A stretch of 64,000 bases of DNA from an uncultured Phycisphaerales bacterium (lineage in GTDB: Bacteria; Planctomycetota; B15-G4). Where the stretch lies: the NCBI GenBank assembly GCA_964490005.1, contig CAZBBB010000004.1, forward strand, positions 888-64,887, written 5' to 3'. The notes beneath the pieces were generated by a model. It ran no database searches, was not told where the DNA came from, and saw only the letters and a list, made by a program, of their open reading frames with translations. Shown piece after piece: positions 1 through 39,243 of the stretch. The first letter of the stretch is position 1; each line of letters begins with the position of its first letter. Made by a program: the position numbers and the translations under genes.

Positions 1-2547
1 CGCCCCCCGCTCTCGCCCACGACGTCGCGGATGGCGTGCGCCGCGTTGACGAGCAGGTTCAGGAAGACCTGGTTGAGGTCGGTGACCCAGCACTCGACCG
101 CCGGCAGGTCCCCGAAGTCGGTCTCGATGTCGGCCACGTACTTGTACTCGTTGCGCGCCACCGCGAGCGTGGTCGCGATGGCCTTGTTGAGGTCGGCCGA
201 GCGGCAACCCTGGTTGCCGGGGTGGCTGAAGTCCTTCATCGCGCGCACGATCGTCGTCACGCGACCGAGCCCCTCCTGCGTCTCGGAGAGCGCCGTCGGC
301 AGCTCGTCGGCGAGGAACTCGACGTCGACGCCGCTCGCCGCCTGCTCGAGGCGCTCGACCAGCTCGGCCGGCAGGCTGCCGGCGCGCGCCGCCCGGAGGG
401 TCTCGGGCATCAGCCTCAGCAGTTCGGTGACGGGCGCCACCGACTCGCTCACGAAGCGCACGTTGTCGCTCACGAACTGCATCGGCGTGTTGATCTCGTG
501 GGCGATGCCGGCCGCCAGCGTGCCCACGGCCTCGAGCTTCTGCGCGTGGTGCAGCTGCATCTCGAGCATCTGCTTCTCGGTGACGTCGGCGCCGATGATC
601 ACGAAGCCGCGCCCCTCGCCGAGCATCGTCGGGTTGACCGTGATGCTCACGGCGCGCGGGTCGCGCCCCTCGAGGGTGACCGCGAGGTTCTCGAGGCGGC
701 GACGCTCGCCGCGCTCGAGGCACTCCCGCACGGCCTGGGCGACGAGCACGCAGTCCCAGGGCAGCGGCAGCTCCTCGAAGCGGCGGCCGAGCGCCTGTTC
801 GTCGGAGATGCCGAGCAGTTCGGCCGCGACGCTGTTCCACTCCACGACGCGTCCGGCGGGATCGACGCCGACGAGGAAGGCCGAGAGCGAGTCGAGCACG
901 CGGCGCTTCTCGCGCGCCTCGCGCACGAGATTGGCCTCGGTGACGCGCAGGTGGCGCGCCTGCTCCTCGAGCGACTGGTTGGCTTCGCGCACGGAGGCCG
1001 CGTGGCGCTCGACCGAGGCCTTGGCCTCGGCCAGCGAGGTGGCGCGCTGGCGCAGCAGCTCCGACTTGCGGATCACGAACGACAGCGCCACGGCCAGGAA
1101 CAGGCCGAACCACAGGATGAGCGCGTTGCTCGCGTTGCGTGCGCCGCCGATCCAGGTCGAGTCGGCCTCGCCGGTGAGCACCCAGACGCGATTGCCGAAG
1201 GCCAGACGACCCGAGGTGAGCGAGTGCGGATCGACGTTCGCGGTGCGCCGGGGCGCGCTGCCCGTGCCGCGCGAGCGGTAGAAGGTCTGCCCGCCGAGCA
1301 CGGCCATGTCCACGTTGAAGGCGCGGCCGATGCCCTCGCCAAAGATCCAGTCGAACATCTGCTGCGCGTCGAGGACGTAGCCGACGACGGCGCCCGGCCC
1401 GGCCTCGCCTCCCGAGGCGGGCACCGGCACGAACACGCAGATGTCCCCCGCTCGCCCGTAGACGCTGACGGGATCGCTGACCGCGACCTCGCCGTCTCGA
1501 AGCGCCTCGGAGATGGCGTGGCGCAGCTCGGGCCGACTCTCGACCGCCCGCGAGAGCGACTCGTCGGACGCCCCGACCTCCCAGACCGGGCGACCCTCCG
1601 ACGAGAGGACGGAGACGCAACGCAGCCCGGGCAGGTCCGAGACGAGCCGTTCGGCCTCGGCCCGCAGCAGCTCGCCGTGGGCGTCCGCTCGGCGCGCCGC
1701 CACTTCCGCCGCGAAGCGCTCGAGCGTCTTCAGGCGCGACTGCAGCAGCTGGTTGGCGTGCGCCATCGCCGCCTCGTGGCTGCGCGTGGCCGCCAGGCTG
1801 TTCAGGCGCGCGTCGCTCGCGGACAGGCTCGTCCAGAGCGCCACGGAGAGGCCGGCGACTCCCAGGCCGACGACCCAGACCGACCAGTTGGGCAGGAAGG
1901 CCGCCGTCGGCGACTCGCGGTGCCGGAAGGTCAGCAGGAAGAACCCGATTCCCAGCGCCACGAAGCCGAACGCCGCGTGCGACTCCATGGCCGCGATGCG
2001 CGCCCAACCCGTCGACGTGGCCTGGCCGGTGACGAAACCGAGCAGGCCCGTGAAGCCGACGCCGACCATGCACGAGGCCAGCACGATGGAGAGGGCGCGC
2101 CGCGCCGGCGTGCGCACGCCCGGTGCGGCGGCCGTGAGCAGGACCCCGCCCGCCAAGGCGAGACAGAGCGCGGCCCCGGGCGACATCGACAGGGTCAGGG
2201 AGGGCGCCGCTCCGTCTCCGAAGATGCGGCTCACGATGCTCGCGCCGGATCCGGCAAGCTGATCGGCGAGCGACAGACTGCCCAGCCCCGCGGCCACCAC
2301 TCCGCCCCAGAGCGAGACTCGCCGCCAGCCCAGTCCATGGGCGACCAGCGCGATCCCCGTGACGACGAAGCCGATCGCCGTGCCGTACTGCATCGACATG
2401 CGCGACGGATCGGGCACGAGTTCCCGCAGGGCACCCAGCAGCCGGCTCACGAGCAACACCGCCAACGCGAAGGCGACGGCGGCGCCGATGAGCAGGTTGC
2501 GGTGTCCCGAGGATCTCTCCGGGGCGTGGCCGGACGGCTCCAGCATG
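1..2547 (-). CDS. Multi-domain membrane sensor histidine kinase (C-terminus beyond window start)
   Basis: Minus-strand frame is open from ATG near 2547 to the window edge; it is absent from the ORF track only because there is no in-window stop. Own translation shows an N-terminal polytopic TM region (NLLIGAAVAFALAVLLV...), a coiled-coil/PAS-like segment, a HisKA H-box LAAGIAHEINTPMQF (antisense of plus 470-530) and an N-box LLVNAAHAI. The long plus ORF 36..3401 is its antisense shadow. Confidence 0.7.
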
Positions 2548-2699
2548 CGGTCTCCGAGCCGGCGGCCATGCGGACCCGCACCCCCGGCGAGACCTCCTGT
2601 CGGCCGGAGCGCGCCCCGGCCTTCAGCCAAACTCGCGGCGACGGCCGGGGCCGCGGCCCGGACCCGCGGAGCGCGCGGGGCCCCGGGCGGCCGTGCCGC

Positions 2700-3251
2700 T
2701 CAGCTCTTGGGCGGGAGCGGGTGGCGGTCGGTGAGGGTGAAGCTCGGCTTCCAGGCGTCCTTGCCCGCGCCGGCGCGGTTCGACAGATCGAGCCGCAGCC
2801 GCGTCACCTTCATGCGCGTCGTGTTGCCTTCGATGTAGAGCAGGAAGTTGGCGATCTCCTGCCGCGTGAAGTCGTCCTTGCCCTGCGCCGCGCCGTGCAG
2901 CGCCGGCGTGAGCAGGAAGCGCGTGTCCCGGTAGCCCTCCGAGGGGTGGTCCTCGTTGGTGGGCGGCGCGATGTTGAAGCTCGTCTTGCCGATGCGGCTC
3001 TCGACGGCCTGCTTCTCGATGTACGCGAAGTTGCCGAGCTTGCCGCTGGCGATCGTGTCCTCGGCCATCTCGCGCTTGAGTTCGTCGATCTCCATCGCCA
3101 GCTCGCCGATCTCGGCGAGTTGGGCCTCGGCCGTGCCGAGTCCGGCCCGCAGCTCTTCGGCGACGCCGTTCTCCCAGACGATGAAGCCGATGCCGCCGAC
3201 GATCAACACGCCCATGAAGCCCAGGACGGCCTTCTCGAAGTCGAGCGCCAT
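2700..3251 (-). CDS. PilO/GspM-like bitopic membrane protein
   Basis: 183 aa with an N-terminal TM (VLGFMGVLIVGGIGFIVW), a coiled coil (AEAQLAEIGELAMEIDELKREM) and a periplasmic domain. Its start overlaps the stop of the upstream PilM-N-like gene. Confidence 0.5.
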   Translation of the reverse strand: MALDFEKAVLGFMGVLIVGGIGFIVWENGVAEELRAGLGTAEAQLAEIGELAMEIDELKREMAEDTIASGKLGNFAYIEKQAVESRIGKTSFNIAPPTNEDHPSEGYRDTRFLLTPALHGAAQGKDDFTRQEIANFLLYIEGNTTRMKVTRLRLDLSNRAGAGKDAWKPSFTLTDRHPLPPKS

Positions 3252-4837
3252 CAGCCCTCCTCCGCCGGGCCGGCGTCATCGAGCACGAGCTGGACCGAGA
3301 GGTCGGTGAAACGCAGCCCCGAGCTGGTCTGCTTGGTGCCCGCCGAACTGAGGTTGCGGAACATCGGGTGCGCCCTCAGGATCTCCTCGAGGGTCTGGTA
3401 GCGCGCGGCGTCCTCGACCTCGCCGGTCAGCGTGAGCACCTTGTTGCGCGAACCCACGTCGATGTCGAGCCGCTCGAGCGCGAAGCGACCGAGCGCGGCC
3501 TCGTTCTCGCGGATCAGCTCGAACAGCTCGATCCAGACCGCCAGACCCGAGGGCAGCTCGGGGATGGTCTGGCTGCGGCCGAGCTTCTGCGCGATGTCCT
3601 CGCGCAGGTCGCGGACGGCGGTGAGCAGCGCGCGCACCTGCGGCGGACCGCGCTCGCGGCCCCGCCACTTGGCGGCCGCCGCCTCGTCGTCGCCGAGCAG
3701 GGCGGCGAGCTGCTCTCCGCCGTGGCGCGTGATCTGGTCGTACTCGCCGAGCAGCCGGCGCGTGCGCATGAAGGCGTCGAGGCCGAGGAACGCGACCGCC
3801 AGAAACAGCAGGAACGAGAACACGATCAGGGGCGTCTTGACCTGATCGAAGCGCCGCGTGTACGCGGCCTCCTCGCGCCGGAAGTCGGTCCGCAGCGCAT
3901 CGACGCCGTTGAGCTTGAAGGCCAGCCCGATCGCGACGCCCAGGTCGGGGCCCAGGCGCGCGGCCTCGTCCTCGTCGAGCTTGTGGTCGACGTGTTCGAG
4001 CAGGTCGAGGCGCTCGACCGGCGCGCCGAAAATCTCGCCGAGCGCCTCGGACAGCCCCGGGAGCGAGCCGCCGCCGCCCGTGAGCCGCACGAGTTCGACC
4101 TGTCCCAGATCGGGCAGGTTGGTGAGCGTGCGGCGGATCTCGCGCGACAGCCGCTGCAGGTACTCGTGCTGCCGCGCCGCGGCGAGCTCGTCCTGCGGAC
4201 CGCCGCCGAGGCCGTGGCTGCCGATGCGCACCGACCGCAGGCCGTGCAGCCGGCCGTCGACGAGGAACAGCAGGTCGGTGGCGTGGTCCTGCGCGTTGAC
4301 GACGACGCAGCGCGCGGGCGTGGCGGCCAACCCCGTGGCGACGAGCGCGTTGTAGAGCGCGAAACCGTCGATCTCGACGAGCATCGGGTCGAAGCCGCTC
4401 TCGTCGAGGACGTCGAGCCGGTCGAGCAACTCCTCCTTCTTGACGGCCACGGCCAGGACGTGGCTCTTGTCGCGCGAACGACGCAGCACGGTGTGCTGCA
4501 CGACGTACTCGTCGAGGTCGCCCGGAAAATGGGGCTCGGCCTCGAAGCGCACGACCTTGTCGATCTGCTCGTCGCTCGTGAAGGGCAGGTCGAACTCGCG
4601 GAACAGCGCGCTGCCCGCGTCGATGCTCATCGCGGAGGGGTCGAGCGCCACGCCGGCCGCCTTGGTCGCCTCGGCGATCGCCGCGGCGCGCACGTCGTCG
4701 GGATCCTGGTCCTCGGCGGTGGCCACGTCGAGCGAGACCTCCTCGACGGCGAGCACGCGCACCTTGCGCCCCGAGCCGTCGAACTCGATCAGGCGGAGCC
4801 GGTGGCCCCCGTACTCGATCGCGGTCTGCGCGGCCAT
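3251..4837 (-). CDS. PilM-PilN fusion / GspL-like protein
   Basis: 528 aa. The N-terminal 330 aa match the PilM actin-like fold pattern (FREFDLPFTSDEQIDKVVRFEAEPHFPGDLDEYVVQHTVL; VLAVAVKKEELLDRLDVLDESGFDPMLVEIDGFALYNAL). It then has one TM (TPLIVFSFLLFLAVAFLGL) and a periplasmic C-terminal domain. Confidence 0.6.
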   Translation of the reverse strand: MAAQTAIEYGGHRLRLIEFDGSGRKVRVLAVEEVSLDVATAEDQDPDDVRAAAIAEATKAAGVALDPSAMSIDAGSALFREFDLPFTSDEQIDKVVRFEAEPHFPGDLDEYVVQHTVLRRSRDKSHVLAVAVKKEELLDRLDVLDESGFDPMLVEIDGFALYNALVATGLAATPARCVVVNAQDHATDLLFLVDGRLHGLRSVRIGSHGLGGGPQDELAAARQHEYLQRLSREIRRTLTNLPDLGQVELVRLTGGGGSLPGLSEALGEIFGAPVERLDLLEHVDHKLDEDEAARLGPDLGVAIGLAFKLNGVDALRTDFRREEAAYTRRFDQVKTPLIVFSFLLFLAVAFLGLDAFMRTRRLLGEYDQITRHGGEQLAALLGDDEAAAAKWRGRERGPPQVRALLTAVRDLREDIAQKLGRSQTIPELPSGLAVWIELFELIRENEAALGRFALERLDIDVGSRNKVLTLTGEVEDAARYQTLEEILRAHPMFRNLSSAGTKQTSSGLRFTDLSVQLVLDDAGPAEEG

Positions 4838-4900
4838 GCTCTCAGTCGCTCCGGGCCGCTCCCGCGGCGGCGGCGACCATACGTCGGCGTCGGCGGGACA

Positions 4901-5260
4901 TCAACGTCGCTCCGGCGTCGCTTCCGGCAGACCCCGCGAGAGCTCGACGTAGCGCGCCCGCTGGTCCGCGTCGAGGCACGCCAGCAGCTCCTGCTCGGTG
5001 CGCCGCCGGCGTTCGGCGACGCGATCGGCGAGTCCGGCCAGGCTGTCGGCGAGCCAGGCGTCGAGGTCGCGGTCCTCCGCGGTGAGCAGCGCGTCGATCG
5101 CCGCGACCTGGTCGGCGCGCAGGTCGAGAATGTCCGCCAGCTGCGTGAGGTACGAAGGCGGCGGCTCGGGTTCCGCCGGGAAGCGCCGCCCGAGGAGCAG
5201 GCCGCTCGCGAGCGCGAGCGCCATGCCCGCCGCCAGCCAGAGCCCGCCCGCGGTCCTCAT
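4901..5260 (-). CDS. Periplasmic LTXXQ-motif (Spy/CpxP/CnrX-like) protein
   Basis: 119 aa from an internal Met of ORF 4901..5701. Has a signal peptide MRTAGGLWLAAGMALALASG, then LTQLADILDLRADQVAAIDALL and a second helical repeat. Its start is ATGA-coupled to the upstream anti-sigma stop (5257-5260). Confidence 0.45.
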   Translation of the reverse strand: MRTAGGLWLAAGMALALASGLLLGRRFPAEPEPPPSYLTQLADILDLRADQVAAIDALLTAEDRDLDAWLADSLAGLADRVAERRRRTEQELLACLDADQRARYVELSRGLPEATPERR

Positions 5261-5745
5261 CGCGGGTCCGTCCCCGCGGCGCCGAAACCCGGATCGAGCA
5301 GACGCGCGCGCAGCCCCTCGATCACGGCGTCGGGCGCGAAGGGATGCGCGCGGAAGGCGTCGACGGCGTGGCGCCCGCGCTCGCGCGCCGACCCGGCCTG
5401 CAGAGCGGCGGGCCGGATCGCGTCGAGCGCCAGCGTGACGGCGAGCACGAGGCCCGCGGCGATCGCCAGCCGGCGCGCGAGCGTCGGCACGTCCGCGGAC
5501 CGCGCGCGCCGCGCGGCGAGCACGCGCTCGGTGAAGCCGGCGCGCGCGCGCAGCGGCGGCGCCTCCGCCAGCAGCGCGCGCCGCGCACGGAAGCCTTCCG
5601 CCGTCCGTCGCAGGTCGGGACGCGCGGCCAGCATGGTGCCGCAATACAGCAGCACCTGGGCGGCGATCGGACGCCCGTCGAGGCGCAGCGACTCCACCCA
5701 CAGGCAGGTCGTGTCGTCGGGCGGGATGTCGGCCTCAGCGCTCAC
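5257..5745 (-). CDS. Membrane anti-sigma factor (putative)
   Basis: 162 aa with one TM (LAIAAGLVLAVTLAL). Overlaps the ECF sigma stop by 4 nt (5742-5745). Its position matches an anti-sigma gene. Confidence 0.5.
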   Translation of the reverse strand: MSAEADIPPDDTTCLWVESLRLDGRPIAAQVLLYCGTMLAARPDLRRTAEGFRARRALLAEAPPLRARAGFTERVLAARRARSADVPTLARRLAIAAGLVLAVTLALDAIRPAALQAGSARERGRHAVDAFRAHPFAPDAVIEGLRARLLDPGFGAAGTDPR

Positions 5746-6302
5746 GGTTCGACGTCTCCGAGCAGGTCGCGCAGCTTGCAGCGCGCCCGGAAGATGCGCG
5801 ACTCGACGGTGCCGATCGAGACGCGCAGCAGCGTCGCGATCTCCTCGTACGTATGACCCTGCAGTTCGCGCAGGACGAGCGTCGTGCGGAACGGCTCGGG
5901 CAGGCGCTCGAGCGCCGAATGCACCGCGGCCGCGCGCTCGCTGCGCGCGAGCCGCGCGTCGGGCGGCTCGCCGCCGTCGTCCACGGCGTCGACGATGGGA
6001 CCCTCGGGGCCATCGATCGACACGACCGGCCGCCGCCGACGATGGGCGCGGAAGTCGTGGGCGACGTTGACGGCGATGCGGTAGAGCCAGGTGAACAGCG
6101 CCGAGCCGCCCTCGAAGCGATCGAGGGCCGCGAAGGCCTTGAGGAAGGCTTCCTGGGCGAGGTCCTCGGCGTCGGCGGGCGAACCCGAGACGCGCGCCAC
6201 GAGCGTGATGATGCGGTCGCGGTGGGCGTCGACGAACTCACGGCAGGCGGCCTCCTCGCCGGCGCGCATGCGCGCCACGAGGGAGGCGTCAGCGTCCCTC
6301 AT
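5742..6302 (-). CDS. ECF-type RNA polymerase sigma factor
   Basis: 186 aa. Region 2 is DLAQEAFLKAFAALDRFEGGSALFTWLYRIAVNVAHD; region 4 is TYEEIATLLRVSIGTVESRIFRARCKL. Confidence 0.85.
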   Translation of the reverse strand: MRDADASLVARMRAGEEAACREFVDAHRDRIITLVARVSGSPADAEDLAQEAFLKAFAALDRFEGGSALFTWLYRIAVNVAHDFRAHRRRRPVVSIDGPEGPIVDAVDDGGEPPDARLARSERAAAVHSALERLPEPFRTTLVLRELQGHTYEEIATLLRVSIGTVESRIFRARCKLRDLLGDVEP

Positions 6303-6348
6303 GCAGATCTCCGCGCCGGTCTGCCCCTCCGACGAGCCGCCGCGACGA

Positions 6349-7653
6349 CTATTCCCGCTCCGGCGGCGGCCCGGGGGCCTCCCCGGCCCGGGGGCCGCGG
6401 GGCGGGACGACGGGCAGGTCGAGTTCGTGGCCGAGCTTGTCGCGCTTGGCGTGCAGGTAGGCGGAGTTGTGCTCGTCGGCCGCGACCTGCAGCGGAACGC
6501 GCTCGGCGATGGCCAGGCCGTAGCCGCTCATGGCGTGGTACTTGCTCGGGTTGTTGGTCAGCAGCCGCAGCCGGCGCACGCCCAGGTCGCGCAGGATCTG
6601 CGCGCCGACGCCGTAGTCGCGCACGTCGACGGGCAGGCCGAGGGCCTTGTTGGCTTCGACCGTGTCGAGCCCCTCGGTCTGCTGCAGGTGATAGGCCTTG
6701 AGCTTGTTCGCCAGCCCGATGCCGCGGCCCTCCTGCTGGCGCATGTAAAGCACGACGCCCTCGCCCTCGTCGGCGACGCGCTGCATCGCTTGAGCGAGCT
6801 GCGCGCCGCAGTCGCAGCGCAGCGACGCGAGCACGTCGCCGGTCAGGCACTCGCTGTGCACGCGCACGAGGACGGGCCGCTGCAGGCCGTCCTGCAGCCC
6901 GGGGCGCGGTTCTCCGACGGTGAGGGCCACGTGCTCGCTCTGGTCGACGACGGAGCGGTACAGGTGCGCGCGAAACCGGCCATGGCGCGTCGGCAGATCG
7001 ATCGAGACCAGCCGCTCGACGAGCTGCTCGGTGCGCCGCCGGTGCTTGATGATGTCCGCCACCGTCGCGATGCGCAGCCGGTGCGTCGCGGCGAAGCGAA
7101 CCAGGTCGGGCATGCGCGCCATCGTGCCGTCGTCGTTCATGATCTCGCAGATCACGGCGATCGGGCGGCAACCTGCGAGGCGCGCGAGGTCGACGGCGCC
7201 CTCGGTCTGTCCGGCGCGGCGCAGCACGCCGCCGGGCATGGCGCGCAGCGGGAAGACGTGGCCGGGACGCACGAGGTCGGCCGGCGTGCAGGCCGGGTCG
7301 GCCGCCACCAGGATGGTGCGCGCCCGGTCGCCGGCCGAGATTCCCGTGGTGACGCCCGTCGCCGCCTCGATCGAAACCGTGAAGGCCGTGCCGAGGCGCG
7401 AGGTGTTGCGCTCGACCTGCAACGGCAGCTCGAGCCGGTCGGCGATGGCCTTCTCCATCGGCAGGCAGATCAGCCCGCGCGCGTACCGCGCCATGAAGTT
7501 GACCATCGCCGGGGTGATCGTCTCCGCAAGGCAGACGAGGTCGCCTTCGTTCTCGCGGTCCTCGTCGTCGACGAGGATGATCATGCGCCCGGCGCGCAGG
7601 TCCTCGAGCACCTCGGGGATCGACGCGCAGGCCGGCGTGCGATCCTCGCTCAT
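6349..7653 (-). CDS. ribBA: Bifunctional 3,4-dihydroxy-2-butanone-4-phosphate synthase / GTP cyclohydrolase II
   Basis: 434 aa. DHBP synthase N-terminus ([12 protein letters not shown]) and GTP cyclohydrolase II C-terminus ([20 protein letters not shown]). Confidence 0.9.
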
Positions 7654-10172
7654 GACGAAAGGCCGTCCGGGGCCGGCGGCGGAGCGTCGGGGTCGGCGTG
7701 CGGCTCGGCCGCGCCCTCGGCGGGCGTCGTGGCGCCGGCCTCGTCCCCGTCGACCTCGGGACTGACGCGCGCCGCCGACGCCACCGCGTCACCTTCCTGC
7801 AGCGTGATCAGCCTCACGCCCTGCGTCGCTCGGCCGATGCAGCCGACTTCGGCCGCCGGCGTGCGCACGACCTGCCCGCCCGTCGTGATGTAGATCACGT
7901 CGTCCCCGTCGCCCACGGCCCGCAGCGTGACGACCGGTCCGTTGCGCTCGGTCGTGCGGATGTTGATGACGCCCTGGCCGCCGCGCCCCTGCAGCGGGTA
8001 GTCGTCGTAGGCGGTGCGCTTGCCGTAGCCGTTGCGGCACACGGTGAGCAGCGTGCAGCCCGGGCGCACGAGCGCCATGCCGCAGACCCGGTCGCCCTCC
8101 TTCAGCCGGATGCCGCGCACGCCGGTCGCGGGGCGCCCCATGGCGCGGACATCCTTCGCGGCGAAGCGGATCGACTTGCCCTGCTCCGTGCCGAGGATGA
8201 TGTGGTCGTCGTCCTCGCACACGGCGACGTCGATGAGTCGGTCGCCCTCCGAGAGGCCGAGCGCGATGATGCCGCCCGCCTTGGGCCGGCTGTAGTCGGA
8301 AAGGCTCGTGCGCTTGGTCGTGCCCTGCGCCGTGGCGAAGATCAGCGCCCCCACGGAGAAATCGCGCACGGGGATGACGGCCTGGATGGTCTCCTCGGCC
8401 GGGAAGCCCGGGATCAGGTTGACGGCCGCGCGCCCCATCGCCGTGCGCGACAGTTCGGGGAGCCGCCAGACCTTGAGCCAGTGGACCTTTCCGCTCGCCG
8501 TGAAGAACAGCAGCGAGTCCTTGTTGTTGGCGAGGAACAGCCGCTCGATGAAGTCGCCCTCGCGCGACTCGCCGCCGCGGATCCCCGAGCCGCCGCGGCG
8601 CTGGCTGCGGTACGAGTCGAGGGTCATGCGCTTGAGGTAGCCCTGGTTGCTGATCGTGACGGCCACGGTGTCGTCGGGCACGAGGTCCTCGTCCTCGAGT
8701 CCGTCGACCGGCTCGCCGATCTCGGTGCGACGCGGCGAGGGGTAGGCCAGCGCGAGCTTGTCGAGCTCCTCGACGATGATCGCGTCGATCTGCTTCGGGT
8801 CGGCGAGGATGCCCTCGAGGCGCGCGATCTCGGCCACGAGCGCGCGCCACTCGGCCTCGAGCTTCTCGACCTCGAGGCCCGTCAGCGCGCGCAACCGCAT
8901 GTTGACGATGGCCTCGGCCTGCTTCTCGGACAGCTCGAAGCGCGCGCACAGCTCGGCGATCGCGGCGGCGGCGTTCTCGGCCGCGCGGATCGCGGCGATG
9001 ACTTCGTCGATGTGCGCGACCGCGATGCGCAGGCCTTCGACGATGTGCAGGCGCGCCTTCGCCACGCCGAGCAGGAAGCGCGTGCGGCGGCGGATGACCA
9101 CGCGGCGGTGTTCGAGGAACTCGCGCATCAGCCCGGCGAGCGAAAGCGTGCGCGGCCGGTTGTTCACGAGCGCGATGTTGATGACCGAGACCGTCACCTG
9201 CAGTTGCGTGAACTTGAACAGGTGGTTGAGCGTGACCTGCGGGTCCTCGCCCTTCTTGAGCTCGATCACGATCTCCATGCCGTCGCGATCGGAGTGGTCG
9301 TTGATGTCGTGGATGGACGCGAGGCGCCCGTCCTTGACCAGCTGCGCGATGGCTTCGATCAGGCTGGCCTTGTTCACCTGGTAGGGGATCTCGGTCACGA
9401 CGATGCGCGCGCGCCGGCCCTTCTCCTCGGGGACGCACTCGACCTTGGCCCGCAACAGCGTCGTGCCGCGCCCCGTCTCGTAGGCGTGCCGCACGCCCGA
9501 CTGGCCGCAGAGGATGCCCCCCGTCGGGAAATCGGGGCCAGGCACGAGGGCCATGAGTTCCTCGAGGCTGGCGTCGGGGCGGGCGATGAGCAGCTTGAGG
9601 GCCGCGAAGATCTCGCCCGGATTGTGCGGCGGCATCGAGGTCGCCATCCCGACGGCGATGCCGTTGCTGCCGTTGACCAGCAGATTGGGGAAGGCCGAGG
9701 GCAGGACGACCGGCTCGGTGCGGCTGCCGTCGTAGTTCGGGACGAAGTCGACCGTTTCCTTGTCGAGGTCGTCGAGCATGAAGGCGGCGGCGGCCGTCAT
9801 GCGGGCCTCGGTGTAGCGCATGGCCGCCGGCGGGTCGCCGTCGACGCTGCCGAAGTTGCCCTGCCCGTCGACCAGCGGGACCCGCAGGCTGAACTCCTGG
9901 GCCAACCGGACGAGGGTCGGATACACGACGCTCTCGCCGTGCGGGTGGTAGTTGCCCGACGTGTCGCCGGCGATCTTGGCGCACTTCTTGAACTTGGCCC
10001 GCGGACCGAGATTGAGGTCGTTCATCGCGACCAGCACGCGGCGCTGGCTGGGCTTGAGTCCGTCGCGCACGTCGGGCAGGGCCCGCGCGACGATGACGCT
10101 CATCGCGTAGGACAGGTAGCTGTCCTTCATCTCCTTCTCGATGAGGACGGGCGCGTCGCGAGAGTCAGCCAT
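7650..10172 (-). CDS. gyrA: DNA gyrase subunit A
   Basis: 840 aa. [11 protein letters not shown], active-site region [10 protein letters not shown], and a C-terminal beta-pinwheel repeat region. Its stop overlaps the ribBA start by 4 nt. Confidence 0.95.
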
Positions 10173-10390: not shown

Positions 10391-11278
10391 ATGCACGCCG
10401 ACGAGAAGGACCTGCTCGAACGCATCTTCGCGGCCGAGCCCGGGGCGTTCGAAGAACTCCTGGCGCGCTATCGCGCGCTGATCTACTCGGTGTTCGTCAG
10501 CCCGGGCTTCGACTTCCCGCGCGACATGCTCGACGACCTGTTCCAGTCCTTCGTCGTCGCCCTCTCGCGCAAGGACTACCACAAGCTGCGCGCCTTCGAG
10601 GGCCGCAACGCCTGCTCGCTCGCCACCTTCCTGCAGGTCGTCGCGACGCGCTTCGCCCTCGACGAGCGTCGCCGCCTGCGCCGGCAGCCGCGGGCCCGCG
10701 GCACGGCCGACCGCGGCGACGACGAGCCGAACTACGAGATCGAGGACGAAGCGGCCGCGCCCCCCGACAGCGCATCGCTCGAGAAGGAACGCGCCGACGC
10801 GTTCCACAACCTGCTGTTCTCGCTCGACTGGAAGCGGATCTCGGCCGTGCTCTGGGTCTTCCGGGACATCTCGCGCGAGCGCATCGCCGAGGTCATGTCC
10901 ACGTCGCGCGCGAACATCGACGCGCTCTACAAGCGCGCCAAGGACCAGATGGCGCGCCTGTACGCGGACGGCGCCTACTCGCGAGCCGAGCGCCGCCCGC
11001 ACGCCGACGTGCTGACCCCCGCCGTGGCCGAGGCGCTGCGCCGCCTCGTGCGCACGCCCACGCCGCTGCTGCTCGAGGCACTGCTTCAGCCCGGGGCCAA
11101 GCGCCGAGCCCTGCTCGGCCTGGTCCTGATCGATTATCCGCAGTATCTGTGCACCTTGGGCGAACTGGCCAAGCTCACCAAGGAACGGCCCGCAAACGTC
11201 GAATCCGAGTGCCTTTCGGTCCTCGAGGGCGTGGCGCTCACGCTCCAGGAAACCCCCATGCAGGAGGCGGGAGGGTGA
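10391..11278 (+). CDS. ECF-like sigma-70 family sigma factor with C-terminal extension
   Basis: 295 aa. Region 2 is DMLDDLFQSFVVALSRKDYHKL; region 4 is ISAVLWVFRDISRERIAEVMSTSRANIDALYKRA. An extra ~95-aa C-terminal part follows. Confidence 0.65.
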   Translation: MHADEKDLLERIFAAEPGAFEELLARYRALIYSVFVSPGFDFPRDMLDDLFQSFVVALSRKDYHKLRAFEGRNACSLATFLQVVATRFALDERRRLRRQPRARGTADRGDDEPNYEIEDEAAAPPDSASLEKERADAFHNLLFSLDWKRISAVLWVFRDISRERIAEVMSTSRANIDALYKRAKDQMARLYADGAYSRAERRPHADVLTPAVAEALRRLVRTPTPLLLEALLQPGAKRRALLGLVLIDYPQYLCTLGELAKLTKERPANVESECLSVLEGVALTLQETPMQEAGG

Positions 11279-11357: not shown

Positions 11358-12053
11358 ATGACCAGCTTCGACCACGTCTTCGCGCTGCGGGGCCTGCTCT
11401 CCTCCCGGTCCGCGCCGCCGGGACCCGAGTGTCCGAACGACGAACTCCTCGCGGCCTACGCCGACGTGCTGCTCCCGATCCGGGCGCGCGAGAGTGTCGA
11501 GAACCACGCCCTGCACTGCGCCCCGTGCCACGAACTCGTGCGCGCGCTGGTCGATGCCGGCATCGTCCGGAGCGAACCGGTCCGCGTCGGATTGCGCGCG
11601 ACCAGCTCCACCCCGACGGTCGTCACCATCATCGGGCGCCTCGTGCAGCGCGGCATCGAACTGCTCAATCAGGCCGACCTGTCGTTCGGAGCGCGGGGCG
11701 CGCCCGTGCCGGTGCCGGCCCTCGGCGGATTGCGGAGCACGACCGCGGCGGCCGACCTCGTGTCCATCAAGGGTCCCGGTCACGGCATCGACGATATCGA
11801 GCTGCAGGTCCAGCCCAACGGCACGGCGCGGCTGGGTGTCCGCTGCGACGCGCTGCCCGACCTGCCGGCCGACGAGGTGCTCTCGATCGTCCTCGCGGTC
11901 GATGGCGCGCCGCGCGAGAAGCGGCCCTTCGACGGCAGCCCGGTGAGCTTCGCGCCGATCGGCCTCGGCCGCTACGAGATCCGCCTCGTGGCACGCGCGC
12001 CCGGCCGGCAGGCGCGCGAGTTGTCGCGCGCGGTGATCGACCTCAGCGCCTGA
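11358..12053 (+). CDS. Zinc-binding anti-sigma factor (ZAS-type)
   Basis: 231 aa with the HxxxCxxC motif HALHCAPCHELV near the N-terminus. It lies 79 nt downstream of the ECF-like sigma gene. Confidence 0.55.
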   Translation: MTSFDHVFALRGLLSSRSAPPGPECPNDELLAAYADVLLPIRARESVENHALHCAPCHELVRALVDAGIVRSEPVRVGLRATSSTPTVVTIIGRLVQRGIELLNQADLSFGARGAPVPVPALGGLRSTTAAADLVSIKGPGHGIDDIELQVQPNGTARLGVRCDALPDLPADEVLSIVLAVDGAPREKRPFDGSPVSFAPIGLGRYEIRLVARAPGRQARELSRAVIDLSA

Positions 12054-14664
12054 GTTCGGCGCGCCGCAGCTGTGCCGCGCGCTGCAGTTCCCGATCCGCG
12101 GCCTCGGCCTCGAGGCTGGAGCGCAGCACGACGGCCTTGAGCAAGGCGAGGCGCACGCTCGGCAGTTCCGCCGCGCTCGTCCGCTCCCAGACATCCGCGA
12201 AGCGGCCGAAGTCGCCGTAGAGCGCGAGCGGCTCCAGCAGCGCCTCGAGCGCCAGGGCGCGCCGCGGGTCGTCCCCGCCGACCTGTGCGTACTGTTCGAC
12301 CTCGCGCTCGAAGGCCCCCCAATCGACGTCGGGCCGGATCTCGAGCAGCATCTCGTTGACCTCGCCGACGCGGTACTCGTAGCCGGAATGGATGGCGAGG
12401 CCGTGCAGGAGCGGTCGCGGCCAACCCTGCGAGGGCGGCCCTCCGACCGCGACCGTCGAGAAGTCGGCGGATCCCGACGGCAAGCCGGCCAGCGCCGCCC
12501 AGCCGCGACCGCCCGCCCCGGCCGTCCGGATCAGGCGCGCACCGCGATGCGCCGGCGCGGACTCGGCGAGAGTTGACATTCCCGCGCCGTCCAGGAGCAG
12601 CAGGGCGGCCAGGTCGGCCGGGTCCCGCAGCCGGGTGCGGCCGGCAGCCGGTGCGAGTCGCGCGAGACGCTCGTGCAACTCCTCCGCATCGAGGCGCCCC
12701 GTCTCGTCGGCCCAGCCGACGAGGGCCACGTGCGGCGCGTCGAGTTCGCGCATCTCGACGAAGGCGGCGCTCGCGGCGCCGAACGCGGAAGCGAACGCCG
12801 CCAGACGCGCTTCCAGCGCGGCGGCATCGACACCCGAGGCATCGATCCACGCCAGGCAGCGTCCGCCGGGGCCCAGCAACTCCTGCGCCCGTCCCAGCGC
12901 CTCCGACGTGAGCGTGTCGTGGTCGTCCAAGGCGCCGAGCAGCACGATCGTGTCGAACTCGCCGGGCGCGGCATCGCGGAGAGCCACCGCCGGATCGAGC
13001 ACGCGCCCGGCCTGCCACCCCGACGAGCCGAGGGCCTCGAGCAGGATGCGCGTCAGCATCGATCCGAACGGGGTCGGACTGGCGACCATCGTTTCGCTCG
13101 CCAGCCCCGCGTCGTTCAGATCCGCCGCCAGCAGTTCGGCGCCGCGACCCGCAATCAGCGTGCGGCCCCGACGGGCGAACAGGCGCGTAAGGCGCGCGAG
13201 GCTGCCGCCCGGGCCGATGGGAGCCGCGCCCGCGAACGCCGTCCGGCCGCCGACCCGCAGCCCGTAGCAGCGTCGCGGTTCGGACGGCTCGCCCCCCTCC
13301 TCGTCGTCGTGCGTCGAGCTGGCTGCGAGGCGCTCGACGAGCCGCCCACCTTCGTCGAGGTCGTAGACCGGCTCGAGGCACGTGCAGGTGTGCTTCCACG
13401 CCGCGCGCCCCTCGAGACTGTGACTGCTGCGGTCGGGCGTCGAGAACAGCACCACGTCTTCGAGCGGCGCGCGCTCGAAGGCCTCGACCGTGAACTCCCC
13501 GGGGCGCCGCACTTCGTCGTAGGCCGGTCGCGACTCGGGCGCCACCACCAGGAACGGAACGGCCGCAAGCGGGGCCGCCCAGACGCCCCGCCTGCCGGCG
13601 AACCCGATCACCCCCGCGACCAGCGCCGCACCCGAGGCCGACAGCAGCATGAGCGCGGGCGACGTCTGCGGCGCGATCTCCGTGAGGACCGTCGCCGCCA
13701 GCGCCGCGCCGACGCCCAGGCACAACGCGCCGGCGGCCCGCGCATCGAGCGTCGCCAGCGCGAGTCCCGCCCCGATGAGCGGACGCGCCGCGAACATGAG
13801 CAACCACAGGCGCCAGTCGTCGACCAGCGGCCAACCGCGCCCGCCCCACAGCGCCAGCTTGCGCGTGAGCTCGACCTGGATCATGGGCTCGCGGTGGAGC
13901 GCGAGCGGCTCGATCAGCAGCACGAGGAGCACGGCCAGCACGAGACCGCCCGCACCGGCGAGCAGGCGACGCATCGGGCCCGCCGACGCCACGACGCGGC
14001 CCAGGGCGGCGAGCAGCGCGACGGGGACCGTCAGTACGCAAATGATGTCGGTGCTCGCGTGCGGTCCGGGCCCGACGTAGGCAGGGACGACGCGCGCCAG
14101 CACGAGGCCCAGCGCGCCGACGGCGAATCCGCACAGGGCGGCGCGCAGGCACGACCCGTCGCGCACGTCGCCGACGAGATGCTCCGGCTGTCCGCCACGC
14201 AGCGCCTCCCTGCCCGCCGTCAACGCGGTCGCGACGACGGCGCCCAGCAGCCAGGCGGGCATGAGCGCGCCCGCGCCCCACCAGGAGGCCGCAACCTGCG
14301 CAAGGGCGATGCCGAGCAGCGCGGTGGACAGTCCGCCGCGCAGGCACGGGTGCAGCAGCCTGCCCAGCACGAAACCGACGGGCAGCAGCGAAACGGCCGC
14401 CGCCAGGAGCAGCGCGGCGCGCCCCGCGGGGAGCACGCGCACCAGGACGTCGGCGATCGGGCCGCGCAGGGGAACGAGCAGCGCGAGCGCCACGCCGTCG
14501 GAGAGGTAGGGCACGCGGCGCCGCGACCGCAGGCCGATGCCGACGGCAGCCACGAGCAGGGCCGACGCCAGCGGCTCCTGCCGGAGCCCGAGGCCCGCCG
14601 CCGTTCCCGCCAGCAGCACCTGGACGAGCAGCGCCGCCGCGGCGACCGCCAGCAGCGGGATCAT
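12043..14664 (-). CDS. Polytopic membrane protein with spermidine-synthase-like C-terminal domain
   Basis: Internal start MIPLLAVAAAALL of ORF 12043..15288 (its first 208 aa are R-rich and overlap dapF in another frame). About 12 TM helices are followed by an aminopropyltransferase-fold region. Its ATG overlaps the dapF stop (ATGA at 14661-14664). Confidence 0.45.
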   Translation of the reverse strand: MIPLLAVAAAALLVQVLLAGTAAGLGLRQEPLASALLVAAVGIGLRSRRRVPYLSDGVALALLVPLRGPIADVLVRVLPAGRAALLLAAAVSLLPVGFVLGRLLHPCLRGGLSTALLGIALAQVAASWWGAGALMPAWLLGAVVATALTAGREALRGGQPEHLVGDVRDGSCLRAALCGFAVGALGLVLARVVPAYVGPGPHASTDIICVLTVPVALLAALGRVVASAGPMRRLLAGAGGLVLAVLLVLLIEPLALHREPMIQVELTRKLALWGGRGWPLVDDWRLWLLMFAARPLIGAGLALATLDARAAGALCLGVGAALAATVLTEIAPQTSPALMLLSASGAALVAGVIGFAGRRGVWAAPLAAVPFLVVAPESRPAYDEVRRPGEFTVEAFERAPLEDVVLFSTPDRSSHSLEGRAAWKHTCTCLEPVYDLDEGGRLVERLAASSTHDDEEGGEPSEPRRCYGLRVGGRTAFAGAAPIGPGGSLARLTRLFARRGRTLIAGRGAELLAADLNDAGLASETMVASPTPFGSMLTRILLEALGSSGWQAGRVLDPAVALRDAAPGEFDTIVLLGALDDHDTLTSEALGRAQELLGPGGRCLAWIDASGVDAAALEARLAAFASAFGAASAAFVEMRELDAPHVALVGWADETGRLDAEELHERLARLAPAAGRTRLRDPADLAALLLLDGAGMSTLAESAPAHRGARLIRTAGAGGRGWAALAGLPSGSADFSTVAVGGPPSQGWPRPLLHGLAIHSGYEYRVGEVNEMLLEIRPDVDWGAFEREVEQYAQVGGDDPRRALALEALLEPLALYGDFGRFADVWERTSAAELPSVRLALLKAVVLRSSLEAEAADRELQRAAQLRRAELRR

Positions 14665-15500
14665 CCGCCCGACCAGTGGCCGTCGAACACCAGGCGCGCC
14701 GGCCCCTCGAGCCAAGCCGAACCGTGGCCGCTCCACCGCACGTGCAGTTCGCCTCCCGGCATCCGCACCGCGACGCGATGCGTCTGCATCCAGCCCAGTC
14801 GCATCGCCACGGCGGCGCAGGCCACCGCCCCGGTGCCACACGCTCGCGTCGCGCCCGAGCCGCGCTCCCACGGGCGGGCGACGATCGTCTCCGCATCGGC
14901 AAGCCGGAGGAAGTGCACGTTGGCGCCGTCGGGCAGTTCCGGAGAACGCTCGATGCGGGCTCCGAAGCGCGGCAGGTCGACCGTCTCGGGCTCGGCCACG
15001 CGCACGACGACGTGCGGATTCCCGATGGAGACGCAGAAGCCCGCGTCCGGATCTGCGCCGAGCTCCGCCGGCAGCGGCAACTCGACGGGCGTCGAGCCGT
15101 CTCCGGCCCGCAGGACAGGGATCGCGTCCGGCGAGAAGTCGGGCGGCCCCATGTCGACCTCGGCGCGCGTCGCCGACAGCAGGCGGCCGTGCCGGAGCCC
15201 CGCGGCGGTCTCGACCGTGACCAGCGGCCCGGTCGCGCGTCCGCTCTCGACCAGCCAGCGGATCACGCAACGCAGGCCGTTGCCGCACATGCGCCCCTCG
15301 CTGCCGTCGGCGTTGAAGATGCGCATGCGCGCCACGGCCGCGCCGCGCGGCGGCCCGACCAGGATCAGCCCGTCGCTGCCGATGCCGCGATGGCGGTCGC
15401 TGACCGCCCGCGCCAGCGCGGCCGGATCGCCCACGCGCTCCTCGAACGCGTTGACCAGCACGTAATCGTTGCCCGCGCCCTCGATCTTGATGAAGTGCAT
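14661..15500 (-). CDS. dapF: Diaminopimelate epimerase
   Basis: C-terminal 279 aa of ORF 14661..16793: MHFIKIEGAGNDYVLVN...GNGLRCV...ACGTGAVA (two catalytic Cys regions). Confidence 0.85.
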   Translation of the reverse strand: MHFIKIEGAGNDYVLVNAFEERVGDPAALARAVSDRHRGIGSDGLILVGPPRGAAVARMRIFNADGSEGRMCGNGLRCVIRWLVESGRATGPLVTVETAAGLRHGRLLSATRAEVDMGPPDFSPDAIPVLRAGDGSTPVELPLPAELGADPDAGFCVSIGNPHVVVRVAEPETVDLPRFGARIERSPELPDGANVHFLRLADAETIVARPWERGSGATRACGTGAVACAAVAMRLGWMQTHRVAVRMPGGELHVRWSGHGSAWLEGPARLVFDGHWSGG

Positions 15501-29134: not shown

Positions 29135-29640
29135 GCCCGCTGGCCGACCTGCGCCTGCTGGTGCTCGATGTCGACGGCGTCCTGACGGACGGCACGGTCG
29201 TGCTCGGCGCGGGCGAGGAGGAGCTCAAGGCCTTCCACACGCGCGACGGCGCCGGCATGGCGCTGTGGCGCGACGCCGGCCTGCAACTCACCTTCCTCAC
29301 CGGGCGCGGCGGCGCGGCGGTGCGGCGGCGCGCGCGCGAGCTGCGCCTCGACCGCATCTGGGAGCAGGCGCGCGACAAGAGCGCCGCCTTCGACGAGATC
29401 CTCGCGCACTACGGCGTCCGGGCCTCGCAGACCGCGGTCATGGGCGACGATCTGCCCGACCTCGCGATCCTCGCGCGCGCCGGGTTCTCCGCGGCGCCGG
29501 CCGATGCCGCCGCCGACATCCGCGAGCGCGTCGACCTGGTCACGCGCGCGCCCGGCGGCCGCGGGGCCGTGCGCGAACTCATCGAACACATCCTGCGCGC
29601 GACCGACCGCTGGAGCGCGTTGCTGGAGACCCTCCGATGA
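29131..29640 (+). CDS. kdsC: 3-deoxy-D-manno-octulosonate 8-phosphate phosphatase (HAD)
   Basis: 169 aa. LLVLDVDGVLTDG and GDDLPD motifs. ATGA overlap with kdsD. Confidence 0.85.
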   Translation: MSPLADLRLLVLDVDGVLTDGTVVLGAGEEELKAFHTRDGAGMALWRDAGLQLTFLTGRGGAAVRRRARELRLDRIWEQARDKSAAFDEILAHYGVRASQTAVMGDDLPDLAILARAGFSAAPADAAADIRERVDLVTRAPGGRGAVRELIEHILRATDRWSALLETLR

Positions 29641-35087: not shown

Positions 35088-37777
<2,690 letters not shown>

Positions 37778-37796
37778 GGGCGACGTCCCTCCCCGC

Positions 37797-38903
37797 TCAG
37801 GACGTGATCGGCATGACGACGTAGATCGAGTCGCCGCTTCCGCGGAACACGCCCGCCGAGGCGCGGTTCTTGAACGCGAAGTCGACCTGGTCCTCCGACA
37901 CCGTCTTGAGGTAGTCGCCGAGGAACTCGGGATTGAAGCGGATCTTGACCTCCTCGCCGTCGTACTCGACGCCGATCTCGCTGCGGCACTCGCCCAGACC
38001 GTCCTGCCGCGAACAGACCGCGAGCCGACCGGCACTGAATTGCAGTTCGACGGCGCGCGCTTCCTCGCCCGCCGTCACCGCCGCGCGCGAGATCGCCTCG
38101 ACGAATGCCGACCTGCCGATCGCGGCGCGGCAGGGCGTGTCGCTCTCCTTGGGCAGCACGGCGCGATAGTCGGGGAACTCGCCCTCCACGAGCAGGACGA
38201 TCACTTCCGTCTCGGCCAGACCGAAACCGATCTGGTTGTCGCGGACGTCGATCGTCAACTCGCCCGAGGCGTCGCTTGCGGCGCGGCGCAATTGGTCGAG
38301 GCCGCGCACCGGAACGATGGACGAGCAGGTCTCCGTCAGTCCCGTGCTGCAGCGCATCGAGGCGCGGGCCAGCCGCCGACCGTCGGTGGAGACGATCACG
38401 ATCTCTTCCGGGCCCAGTTCGAGCAGCACGCCGTGGAACGCGTAGCGCCCCATGTCGCGCGCGGCGGCGAAGGATGCGCGGTCGCACAGGTCGAGGAAGG
38501 CCGCGAGGGGCACGCGCACCGAAGCCTTCCCGCCGGCATCGAGCCCGGGAATCGCGGGAAACAAGTCCGCATCCTCCCCGTGCAGCTTGAAGGTGGTCGA
38601 CTCGCCCGAGATCTCGTGCAGGTTGCCCGACTCGCGGATGCTGAGTTCGGCGCTCGGCAGTGCGCGCACGGCGGACAGCAGCGTGGCGGCCGGCAGGGCG
38701 ACCCGCCCCGAGCCCGAGAGGCCTTCGACGTTGAGCCTGGTGCGGCAGGAGACCTCGCCATCGGTGGCGAGCAGGCGCACGCCGCCGTCATCGACCTCGA
38801 GCAGGACGTCCTGGAAGATCGGTCGGGGGCTTCGATTGGGTGCGAAGGAGGCTGCCAATTGCAGGCGCTGGAGGAAGGCTTCGCGGGGAGTATTCAGTTG
38901 CAT
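37797..38903 (-). CDS. dnaN: DNA polymerase III beta sliding clamp
   Basis: 368 aa with a three-domain clamp pattern (LLEVDDGGVRLLATDGEVS...; NPEFLGDYLK). Confidence 0.9.
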   Translation of the reverse strand: MQLNTPREAFLQRLQLAASFAPNRSPRPIFQDVLLEVDDGGVRLLATDGEVSCRTRLNVEGLSGSGRVALPAATLLSAVRALPSAELSIRESGNLHEISGESTTFKLHGEDADLFPAIPGLDAGGKASVRVPLAAFLDLCDRASFAAARDMGRYAFHGVLLELGPEEIVIVSTDGRRLARASMRCSTGLTETCSSIVPVRGLDQLRRAASDASGELTIDVRDNQIGFGLAETEVIVLLVEGEFPDYRAVLPKESDTPCRAAIGRSAFVEAISRAAVTAGEEARAVELQFSAGRLAVCSRQDGLGECRSEIGVEYDGEEVKIRFNPEFLGDYLKTVSEDQVDFAFKNRASAGVFRGSGDSIYVVMPITS

Positions 38904-39243
38904 GGAGGCGTCCTGCGGAACAGAGCAATCTTAATGAAATTCAGGTCTTCATCAGAAGAGCGAACGGATTGCGGATGGGCGGAGGAATGCATCACGCAAA
39001 GCGTTGCGGTGGAGGGGTTTATGGTATCGCAAAGACTGTTGATGAAGCTCGCGGAGAAGCGTGCGGAACGGTGCATGGCGACCGGTCGCTCGAGGGGAGC
39101 TGCCAAGCCGTCGCGCGGGTGCTGTGGAGGCTGCCCCGCCGGAGACCCTGGCCCTCCCGGGGATCTCCACAAGCGCGGCCGGGAATTCCGTCGAACCGCT
39201 TGGGGGCGACCCCGGCGCGCGACCCCACGCGTGCCGTTCGCAT
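38904..39243. promoter_or_regulatory. dnaA-dnaN intergenic region, candidate oriC / dnaN promoter
   Basis: 340-nt non-coding gap, locally AT-richer (38915-39060). DnaA-box-like 9-mers ATCTCCACA (about 39163) and TGTGGAGGC (about 39123). Confidence 0.3.

Follow-up and report, generated by a model that had tools for sequence, protein, structure and literature searches.

Among the described systems closest to the locus considered here are the PilM, PilN, and PilO proteins of type IVa pili, known from Pseudomonas aeruginosa, Myxococcus xanthus, and Thermus thermophilus, and the GspL-GspM pair of the type II secretion system (T2SS), in which an actin-like domain, one transmembrane (TM) helix, and a periplasmic ferredoxin-like domain are strung together in one chain and followed by a small bitopic partner. 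Proteins resembling both are encoded in a 64,000-nucleotide (nt) stretch of DNA, hereafter the window, from an uncultured Phycisphaerales bacterium of the phylum Planctomycetota (assembly GCA_964490005.1, contig CAZBBB010000004.1, positions 888 to 64,887 of the forward strand). There, the gene for a 528-amino-acid (aa) PilM-PilN-like fusion directly precedes that for a 183-aa PilO-like protein, and these two follow genes for an RpoE-like extracytoplasmic function (ECF) sigma factor, an anti-sigma-like protein, and a 119-aa Spy/CpxP-like protein. Together, the ECF module and the PilMN-PilO pair form a cassette that is conserved across Planctomycetota. Each part is of a known kind. In the searchable open-access literature, no account was found of an RpoE-like module and an orphan PilMN-PilO pair in fixed, phylum-wide combination, and no paper linking an ECF sigma factor with PilM in Planctomycetes was found in open-access full text.

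What does the pair share with its type IVa counterparts? The cytoplasmic domain of the fusion has the fold and the sequence family of PilM, its periplasmic domain is modeled as the PilN-type (alpha-beta-beta)x2 domain, and its partner combines a TM helix, a coiled coil, and what appears to be the ferredoxin-like PilO fold. Unlike in those pili, PilM and PilN form one chain here, no pilP or pilQ gene comes next, the surroundings are free of pilus genes, the clade of the window has lost the DxG motifs, the PilM family TIGR01175 is matched below its cutoff (69.4 bits against 133), and there is the tie to an ECF sigma module. With GspL-GspM the pair has an identical architecture, and the nucleotide site of the window fusion is probably degenerate, as it is in GspL. 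In contrast to GspL, the cytoplasmic domain is of full PilM size, no gsp genes adjoin, and the GspL families stay below their cutoffs (T2SSL, PF05134, 23.7 bits against 25.5; TIGR01709, 23 bits against 65). A profile of the fusion run against the PDB finds Thermus PilM (2ych) at E 7e-27 and GspL only at E 0.15.

A further comparison is offered by Akkermansia muciniphila, which like the Planctomycetota belongs to the PVC superphylum. Its MUL2 locus (Amuc_1098-1102), described as pilus or secretion-like, brings the PilM-like Amuc_1101 together with Amuc_1100 (PMC13174399), beside the secretin-type Amuc_1098, or PilQ (PMC12619756). The Amuc_1101 family of long PilM-like proteins (NF045709) is the best NCBIfam match of the fusion at E 2e-25, though it is matched at 89.6 bits against a cutoff of 650 and over residues 6-206 only. 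Structures of Amuc_1100 (6kny, E 7e-3, and 6lad) are matched by the model of the 183-aa protein with Foldseek probabilities of ~1. Unlike the Akkermansia locus, which has the pilin-like Amuc_1102, the cassette has no adjoining pilin-like or secretin gene among the neighbor families scanned. To our knowledge, no ECF module has been described in the Amuc_1098-1102 locus.

On the signaling side, the cassette recalls the RpoE-RseA-RseB and Cpx-CpxP systems of Proteobacteria. Common to them are an ECF sigma factor of RpoE type, an apparently co-transcribed partner that crosses the membrane once (anti-sigma-like in the cassette), an accessory protein in the periplasm (here Spy/CpxP-like), and what looks like a self-inducing ECF promoter. 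The cassette differs in that its accessory protein is membrane anchored and not RseB-like, that its anti-sigma-like protein has no Pfam anti-sigma domain, and that PilMN-PilO genes are attached. In Escherichia coli, CpxP links the stress pathway to misfolded pilus subunits. A looser parallel may be drawn with the Bacteroidota, in which PorXY-SigP control of type IX secretion joins a component of a trans-envelope machine to an ECF sigma factor and a two-component system, although the protein families involved are unrelated to those discussed here.

How widely is the cassette shared? A scan of one genome per species gave 41 loci, all but three of them labeled Planctomycetota and some carrying class or family labels (Phycisphaerales, Planctomycetia, and Brocadiaceae). 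The cassette genes were detected by tblastn, iterated hidden Markov models (HMMs), and a six-frame HMM search. Their fusions share between 57% and 25% identity with that of the window. Wherever a locus offers enough sequence, the five genes are complete and in the same order, and the gaps in coverage coincide with contig ends (counts in Table 1). A convergent carB gene comes directly after the cassette in most loci; upstream neighbors vary from locus to locus, with the cassette intact. Presence wherever it could be checked in the 41 loci points to a core envelope function.

Recurrent neighbors in the distant loci include an HtrA-like protease, pyruvate dehydrogenase (PDH) E1, sulfatases, hydrolases, XdhC, and DUF885 proteins. 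The protease, an HtrA/DegP-like serine protease with PDZ domains, is encoded a few kilobases downstream of carB in 11 distant loci. In E. coli, it is proteases of the HtrA family that initiate the cleavage of anti-sigma factors and that break down CpxP.

When 1.84 billion representative proteins were searched with a profile of the fusion, 598 representatives matched at E <=1e-30, and among the best 150 of these most are 500-700 aa long, many matching over most of the profile. Those with names are proteins of Planctomycetota metagenome-assembled genomes (MAGs) annotated as "pilus assembly protein PilM," and a cluster look-up of 10 representatives likewise gave MAG names only and no cultured species. 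Broadening the profile for a further homology search brought back this clade again and, in addition, a single PilM-like protein of 917 aa that is unrelated and lies in a different context.

The G+C content of the window is about 72%, and coding frames were chosen by third-position G+C. Open reading frame (ORF) calls, Pfam, NCBIfam, and predicted folds bear out the six consecutive minus-strand genes that the first-pass annotation had recognized, in the order ECF sigma, anti-sigma-like, 119-aa Spy/CpxP-like, PilM-TM-PilN-like fusion, PilO-like, and polytopic PAS histidine kinase; the whole fusion gene spans 3251-4837 (minus strand).

Table 1. Minus-strand features at the start of the window and the occurrence of the cassette genes in related loci
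Feature	Position in window	Strand	Basis	Loci with the gene/loci with sequence there
ECF-type promoter (predicted)	6327..6355	-	Cross-locus motif	
ECF (group IV) sigma factor, RpoE-like, 186 aa	5742..6302	-	Pfam Sigma70_r2 and r4_2; TIGR02937	38/38
Anti-sigma-like protein, single-pass, 162 aa	5257..5745	-	TM prediction, family alignment, overlap with sigma gene	38/38
Membrane-anchored Spy/CpxP-like (LTXXQ-type) protein, 119 aa	4901..5260	-	TM prediction, motifs, profile match to Spy	41/41
Sigma-70-type promoter candidate	4876..4904	-	Positional conservation across loci	
Fusion, PilM-like actin-fold domain (residues 1 to ~315)	3893..4837	-	Pfam, PDB profile, AF2, Foldseek	
Fusion, TM helix (~residues 337-359)	3761..3829	-	Alignment, AF2 helix, hydropathy	
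Fusion, periplasmic part (residues 360-528)	3254..3760	-	AF2 secondary-structure order	
PilO-like partner, 183 aa	2700..3251	-	AF2 and Foldseek	39/39 (directly downstream of fusion)
Sensor histidine kinase, N-terminal 848 aa (gene cut by the window start)	1..2546	-	TM prediction, PAS_4, HisKA	

The first five genes had been taken to be coupled throughout by overlaps of 1-4 nt. This holds at three junctions, with 4 nt shared by the sigma and anti-sigma genes, 4 nt by the anti-sigma and 119-aa genes, and 1 nt by the fusion and PilO-like genes. It does not hold between the 119-aa and fusion genes, where a gap of 63 nt (4838-4900) contains a sigma-70-type promoter motif that is conserved across loci. 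Since this promoter and gap divide them, two transcription units are predicted, one made up of the sigma, anti-sigma, and 119-aa genes (unit 1) and the other of the fusion and PilO-like genes (unit 2). A further 153 nt lie between the PilO-like gene and the kinase gene.

Pfam PilM_2 (PF11104) matches the fusion at 63.4 bits against a cutoff of 27 (E 2.4e-17). A structure prediction, which the first-pass annotation had proposed as a check, was made with AlphaFold2 (AF2) on 29 homologues (mean predicted local distance difference test [pLDDT] score, 86.9) and returned a PilM actin-like domain, a TM helix, and a PilN/GspL-type domain. In the model, the actin-like domain reaches residue ~315, a continuous helix (327-381) holds the TM segment, and extra periplasmic helices lead to a C-terminal alpha-beta-beta-alpha-beta-beta domain (431-517) with the order H431-449, E452-460, E467-474, H477-489, E493-503, and E508-517. 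The periplasmic part, for which no sequence-family match was found, may thus be modeled as the (alpha-beta-beta)x2 ferredoxin-like domain of PilN or GspL. Foldseek places the P. aeruginosa PilM:PilN(1-12) complex first (5eou, E 2.5e-23, target TM-score 0.73), then Thermus PilM (2ych) and Myxococcus PilM (3jc8), with lower scores for FtsA (E ~1e-15) and the cytoplasmic domain of EpsL/GspL (E ~1e-10). Because the PDB profile and fold matches favor PilM, the protein is best read as a fusion of PilM and PilN, derived from PilM but built overall like GspL.

Two stretches of the fusion merit description. A conserved juxtamembrane motif, DFRREExAYTRKFDQVK, precedes the TM helix in the alignment. In the actin-like domain, the phosphate-1 and phosphate-2 DxG motifs are replaced by IEYG and VNAQ in the clade of the window, where a GGGS motif is retained, while distant Planctomycetota relatives keep GLDIG and DVGA. 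At one locus, from a long-read MAG (CAVPAZ010000027.1, 10001-14051), the fusion gene and the kinase gene are each broken into two ORFs; these splits are more likely frameshift assembly errors than pseudogenes.

What about the PilO-like partner? Its AF2 model (pLDDT 85.5) has a TM helix at residues 8-26 and a coiled coil that extends as far as residue 64, ahead of a core with (alpha-beta-beta)x2 topology. Besides the Amuc_1100 structures, Foldseek finds M. xanthus PilO (3jc8_Oa, E 8e-4) and P. aeruginosa PilO (2rjz and 5uvr; target TM-score 0.62). No Pfam or NCBIfam model matches at E up to 1, Pfam PilO and T2SSM included, and no PDB sequence match is better than E 0.25. An exact look-up of the protein returned only contigs of 3-5 kb, each ending in the kinase, and one for the fusion found no record.

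The sigma factor consists of sigma-70 regions 2 and 4 only (Pfam Sigma70_r2, E 9e-17; r4_2, E 4e-15). TIGR02937 is matched at 103.7 bits (cutoff 42.9), and the best NCBIfam model is RpoE (TIGR02939) with 144.9 bits, under its cutoff of 236. The product of the overlapping gene has one predicted TM segment (residues 89-107) and then a periplasmic tail of ~55 aa. An alignment of 34 family members shows a cytoplasmic N terminus of the "S..LDG(E/R)" type without zinc ligands, the TM helix, and the short periplasmic tail. No Pfam model matches the protein, and the NCBIfam anti-sigma model NF052375 does so only at E 0.023.

Regions 5' of the orthologous sigma genes, once aligned, share GGAA(T/G)A-N-CGTCCAAG. 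In 34 of the 38 loci, GGAA-N17/18-CGTCCAAG is found at the same position, ~50 nt 5' of the sigma gene, and the motif has the classic shape of a self-inducing ECF promoter, as which it is predicted here. The window site reads GGAATA-N15-CGTCGGAG, its 3' end 24 nt upstream of the sigma start codon. The search pattern, GGAA-N17/18-CGTC[CGT][ACG]A[GC], was derived from these same sequences, so the evidence for the promoter is its positional consistency and not the match itself; elsewhere in ~800 kb, the pattern occurs a single time. In the window, a second match lies at 60094-60123 (minus strand), ~125 nt upstream of a gene for an ArsR-family regulator (59528-59968). It was rejected as a regulon member, being at chance level: 0.55 matches are expected per 64 kb, and at least two were seen in 12 of 100 shuffles.

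Unit 2 is likewise predicted to have a promoter of its own, of housekeeping type. In the window candidate, TTGATG-N17-TATGGT, the -35 box shares nucleotides with the stop codon that closes the 119-aa gene, while the -10 box ends 38 nt before the fusion ATG. It is weak, agreeing with the consensus at only 8 of 12 positions, and the generic scan did not pick it up. Across the close clade, TTGAnn-N16-18-TAnnnT is positionally conserved in 13 of 18 sequences (score of at least 14), ending 32-41 nt 5' of the fusion ATG. Distant loci have a -10 box (TATAAT, TATACT, or TACAAT) 9-80 nt 5' of the fusion start in 19 of 25 cases, of the CCCTATAATCC type in 17. Sigma-70 promoter scores of at least 14 are reached by 31% of the regions upstream of the fusion gene and by 0.4% of random segments. 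The generic promoter/terminator scan found nothing in 2300-6600, terminator-like sites included, and the promoter calls therefore rest on conservation across loci. Read-through from unit 1 into unit 2 is possible on this arrangement.

The 119-aa protein begins with a TM segment (residues 5-23) and continues as a helical domain with two L-x-x-x-Q motifs, LDLRADQ and LDADQ; G20, L47, Q51, L96, and Q100 are invariant in the family. Had it been correctly assigned to the LTXXQ proteins? Weakly so: a profile of 22 family members run against the PDB matches Spy (3oeo, E 6e-4; 5wnw, E 9e-4; overall range for Spy, 6e-4 to 1e-3), and Pfam LTXXQ (PF07813) matches 10 of the 22 members at E >=0.001 and Metal_resist 6 of them, all under threshold, with no Pfam match for the window copy. 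The protein is best described, on weak support, as membrane anchored and Spy/CpxP-like.

The companion suggestion of a CnrX-like metal sensor did not survive. By this account, the module would work as CnrYXH does, the 119-aa protein sensing periplasmic metal ions and freeing the sigma factor. The layout of cnrYXH, with its sigma factor, small anti-sigma factor, and membrane-anchored helical periplasmic protein, does resemble the three genes here, and the weak Metal_resist matches point the same way. Against this, the window protein has no His and one nonconserved Cys, the family has no conserved Cys or Met positions, the PDB profile search returns Spy with CnrX not among its matches, and no efflux or resistance genes adjoin the cassette in the window ORF scan or in related loci. 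Metal sensing is thus very improbable.

The sixth gene of the run is a different matter. The kinase has six TM segments, an extracytoplasmic loop of ~230 aa, and a seventh TM segment, followed by PAS_4 and HisKA; its orthologues are 941-951 aa long, include HATPase_c, and are followed by two response regulator genes. Of the 16 close-clade loci, 12 have the kinase, and no distant locus does; when two more close relatives were looked up, only one of them had it. The kinase is a clade-specific, variable addition outside the core cassette. The best NCBIfam match of the kinase core is "T2SS_HK" (NF038348), at 134 bits against a cutoff of 450 and over the HisKA/ATPase region only, which is probably generic similarity.

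Could the locus simply be the tail of an ordinary operon for a pilus or T2SS that the window edge truncates, so that pilP-pilQ or gsp genes would lie just past the kinase? The window does end within the kinase gene, and the ground beyond it was judged from orthologous loci. A 52%-identity homologue on a 5.29-Mb contig (CBDFJQ010000002.1) lies in the order gyrA, ribBA, ECF sigma, 170 aa, 119 aa, PilM-like (538 aa), 174 aa, kinase (950 aa), two response regulators, and carB on the opposite strand. A 59% homologue has the same layout, and a 58% homologue lacks the kinase. All 13 kinase-bearing orthologous loci go on with response regulator genes, and the opposite-strand carB follows wherever the contig reaches; kinase-less loci run directly into carB, and the recurrent neighbor families have no secretion domains. 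No positive support for a cut operon was found, and this explanation is the least credible of those considered. The orphan status proposed for the pair thus stands, with two response regulators and convergent carB lying past the kinase in orthologous loci.

The observation that no T2SS or type IV pilus (T4P) genes accompany the pair was made for at least 6 kb and extends to the ORFs scanned across all 64 kb of the window, among which are no genes for a pilus ATPase, secretin, platform protein, or canonical pilin. Neither pilP nor pilQ turned up among those ORFs or in the scanned neighbor families of the 41 loci. The one related item among these ORFs, a 718-aa protein encoded ~47 kb away (52297-54453, plus strand), has a GspG/pseudopilin-type domain (Pfam T2SSG, E 1.8e-7) at residues 631-714 only; a hydrophobic stretch precedes the domain, no prepilin cleavage motif is visible, and so extreme a C-terminal placement is unusual for a pseudopilin domain.

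What the window does contain are housekeeping genes, identified through Pfam as dnaA, dnaN, gyrB, gyrA, dapF, fmt, rsmB, scpA, mgtE, pyrB, and pyrF. Because dnaA, dnaN, and gyrB (35088-40617) lie ~30 kb from gyrA-ribBA (7650-10172, minus strand) and the cassette, the region is taken to be close to the replication origin.

What might a PilMN-PilO pair do beside an RpoE-like module? Our tentative answer, the likeliest of those weighed but a little short of an even call, is that a dispersed type IV filament machine has this pair as its inner-membrane platform, with the envelope module monitoring or boosting it. Unit 1, driven by its ECF-type promoter, would provide the self-inducing RpoE-like sigma factor, the single-pass anti-sigma factor, and the membrane-anchored Spy/CpxP-like protein. 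Unit 2 would be expressed from its own housekeeping-type promoter, with no intrinsic terminator predicted between the two. The fusion and the PilO-like protein, whose periplasmic domains share the (alpha-beta-beta)x2 topology in the AF2 models, would pair through these domains and assemble into a T4P- or T2SS-like platform, the ATPase, polytopic platform protein, secretin, and pilins being encoded elsewhere. The anti-sigma and Spy-like proteins would report periplasmic or envelope stress; the freed sigma factor would induce its own operon, and read-through would lift platform expression above its constitutive level. In the clade of the window, a second input could come from the polytopic PAS kinase and the two response regulators, whose genes form an insertion that parts the cassette from carB. 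Precedent for a dispersed arrangement may exist in Rhodopirellula baltica, whose 719-aa "PilM" (RB2860), a possible orthologue of the fusion, is encoded far from pilB/T/C and is induced with them under salt stress (PMC2754498). A PilM-like protein in a pilus-like locus of the same superphylum is found in Akkermansia, as mentioned.

Several observations weigh against a filament platform. The recurrent neighbor families, scanned out to 10 kb in the 41 loci, include no ATPase, secretin, PilC/GspF, or pilin, and neither do the window ORFs scanned; it is therefore only homology that ties the pair to a filament machine. "PilO-like" is a call at the level of the modeled fold, with modest Foldseek scores (best E 8e-4) and no sequence-family support. 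Nucleotide binding, present in canonical PilM, is probably degenerate in the window clade, given the loss of both DxG motifs. The cassette occupies a housekeeping, origin-proximal setting (gyrA, ribBA, carB, and dnaA) in all major classes, which is unusual for accessory pilus genes, and with separate promoters co-regulation of the two units is not required. The missing motor, pore, and pilin neighbors, the lost nucleotide motifs, and the housekeeping setting would fit equally well with a take-over by signaling, in which no filament exists and the PilMN-PilO complex has become the membrane sensor or scaffold of the ECF pathway. Such a complex would bind the anti-sigma factor, the Spy-like protein, or both in the periplasm and couple to the actin-like domain, the five proteins forming one envelope-surveillance device. 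Loss of the ATP-site motifs is what one would expect of a pure scaffold, and the strict association of the five genes across the phylum while flanks change, together with the recruitment of a kinase and response regulators beside them in one clade, is in keeping with the idea. Yet the pair has its own predicted constitutive-type promoter, and the distant clade keeps intact DxG motifs, as a real PilM would. Nor are we aware of any PilMNO-type proteins elsewhere that serve sigma/anti-sigma signaling exclusively. On balance, a pure scaffold seems somewhat unlikely.

Need the two units have anything to do with each other? They might be mere neighbors, an ECF stress module and a platform pair left side by side because the origin-proximal region rearranges little. 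Their promoters are separate and of different types, and some regional inertia is evident in carB downstream and ribBA upstream, which are also syntenic (the latter in the close clade and five distant loci). But distant upstream genes differ (sulfatases, hydrolases, PDH E1, and small ORFs), and still the five genes are unsplit in all 38 informative loci at 25-34% identity; the kinase/regulator insertion, too, fell after the cassette and not inside it. As the flanks change while the five genes never separate, coincidental adjacency becomes less likely, and we consider it decidedly improbable.

A bolder version of the filament and scaffold proposals can be imagined. The cassette could be a phylum-defining envelope device whose sigma module and platform proteins form one physical unit, an arrangement that would be without a described precedent. 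It would serve either as the missing inner-membrane base of the fiber or pilus apparatus proposed to import whole macromolecules, in parallel to the pilus-like MUL2 uptake locus of Akkermansia and under dedicated RpoE-type surveillance, or as that surveillance circuit itself, with the PilMN-PilO complex converted into its sensor. We think this unlikely. The envelope of Planctomycetota is unusual; according to a recent review, how they take in macromolecules is unknown, and pili emerging from crateriform structures are discussed there as part of an uptake system (PMC12673574).

PilM-type annotations in Planctomycetota hide a GspL-like fusion that, in the loci scanned, never stands beside pilus genes. 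Should its platform and the sigma module prove to interact, a type IV filament-type platform would be coupled to extracytoplasmic stress signaling in a new way. For pursuing it, the cassette offers several handles: two predicted promoters, a sigma/anti-sigma switch, and two membrane proteins.

A few other genes of the window deserve mention. Divergent from gyrA is a gene for a 295-aa protein (10391-11278, plus strand) that was recruited by the iterated ECF-sigma profile and has no Pfam match. Next to it, a 231-aa protein (11358-12053, plus strand) bears a faint zf-HC2 anti-sigma signature. Converging on them is the gene for an 897-aa protein of unknown function (12043-14736, minus strand). All three are syntenic in most close-clade loci, which suggests that the first two form a second, very divergent sigma/anti-sigma-like pair. 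An Rfam scan and a repeat search of the window gave nothing notable. Finally, two adjacent plus-strand genes encode proteins of 949 aa (29637-32486) and 751 aa (32479-34734) with faint matches to LptD_N and LptD, and these may represent a divergent or split LptD-like outer-membrane protein pair.

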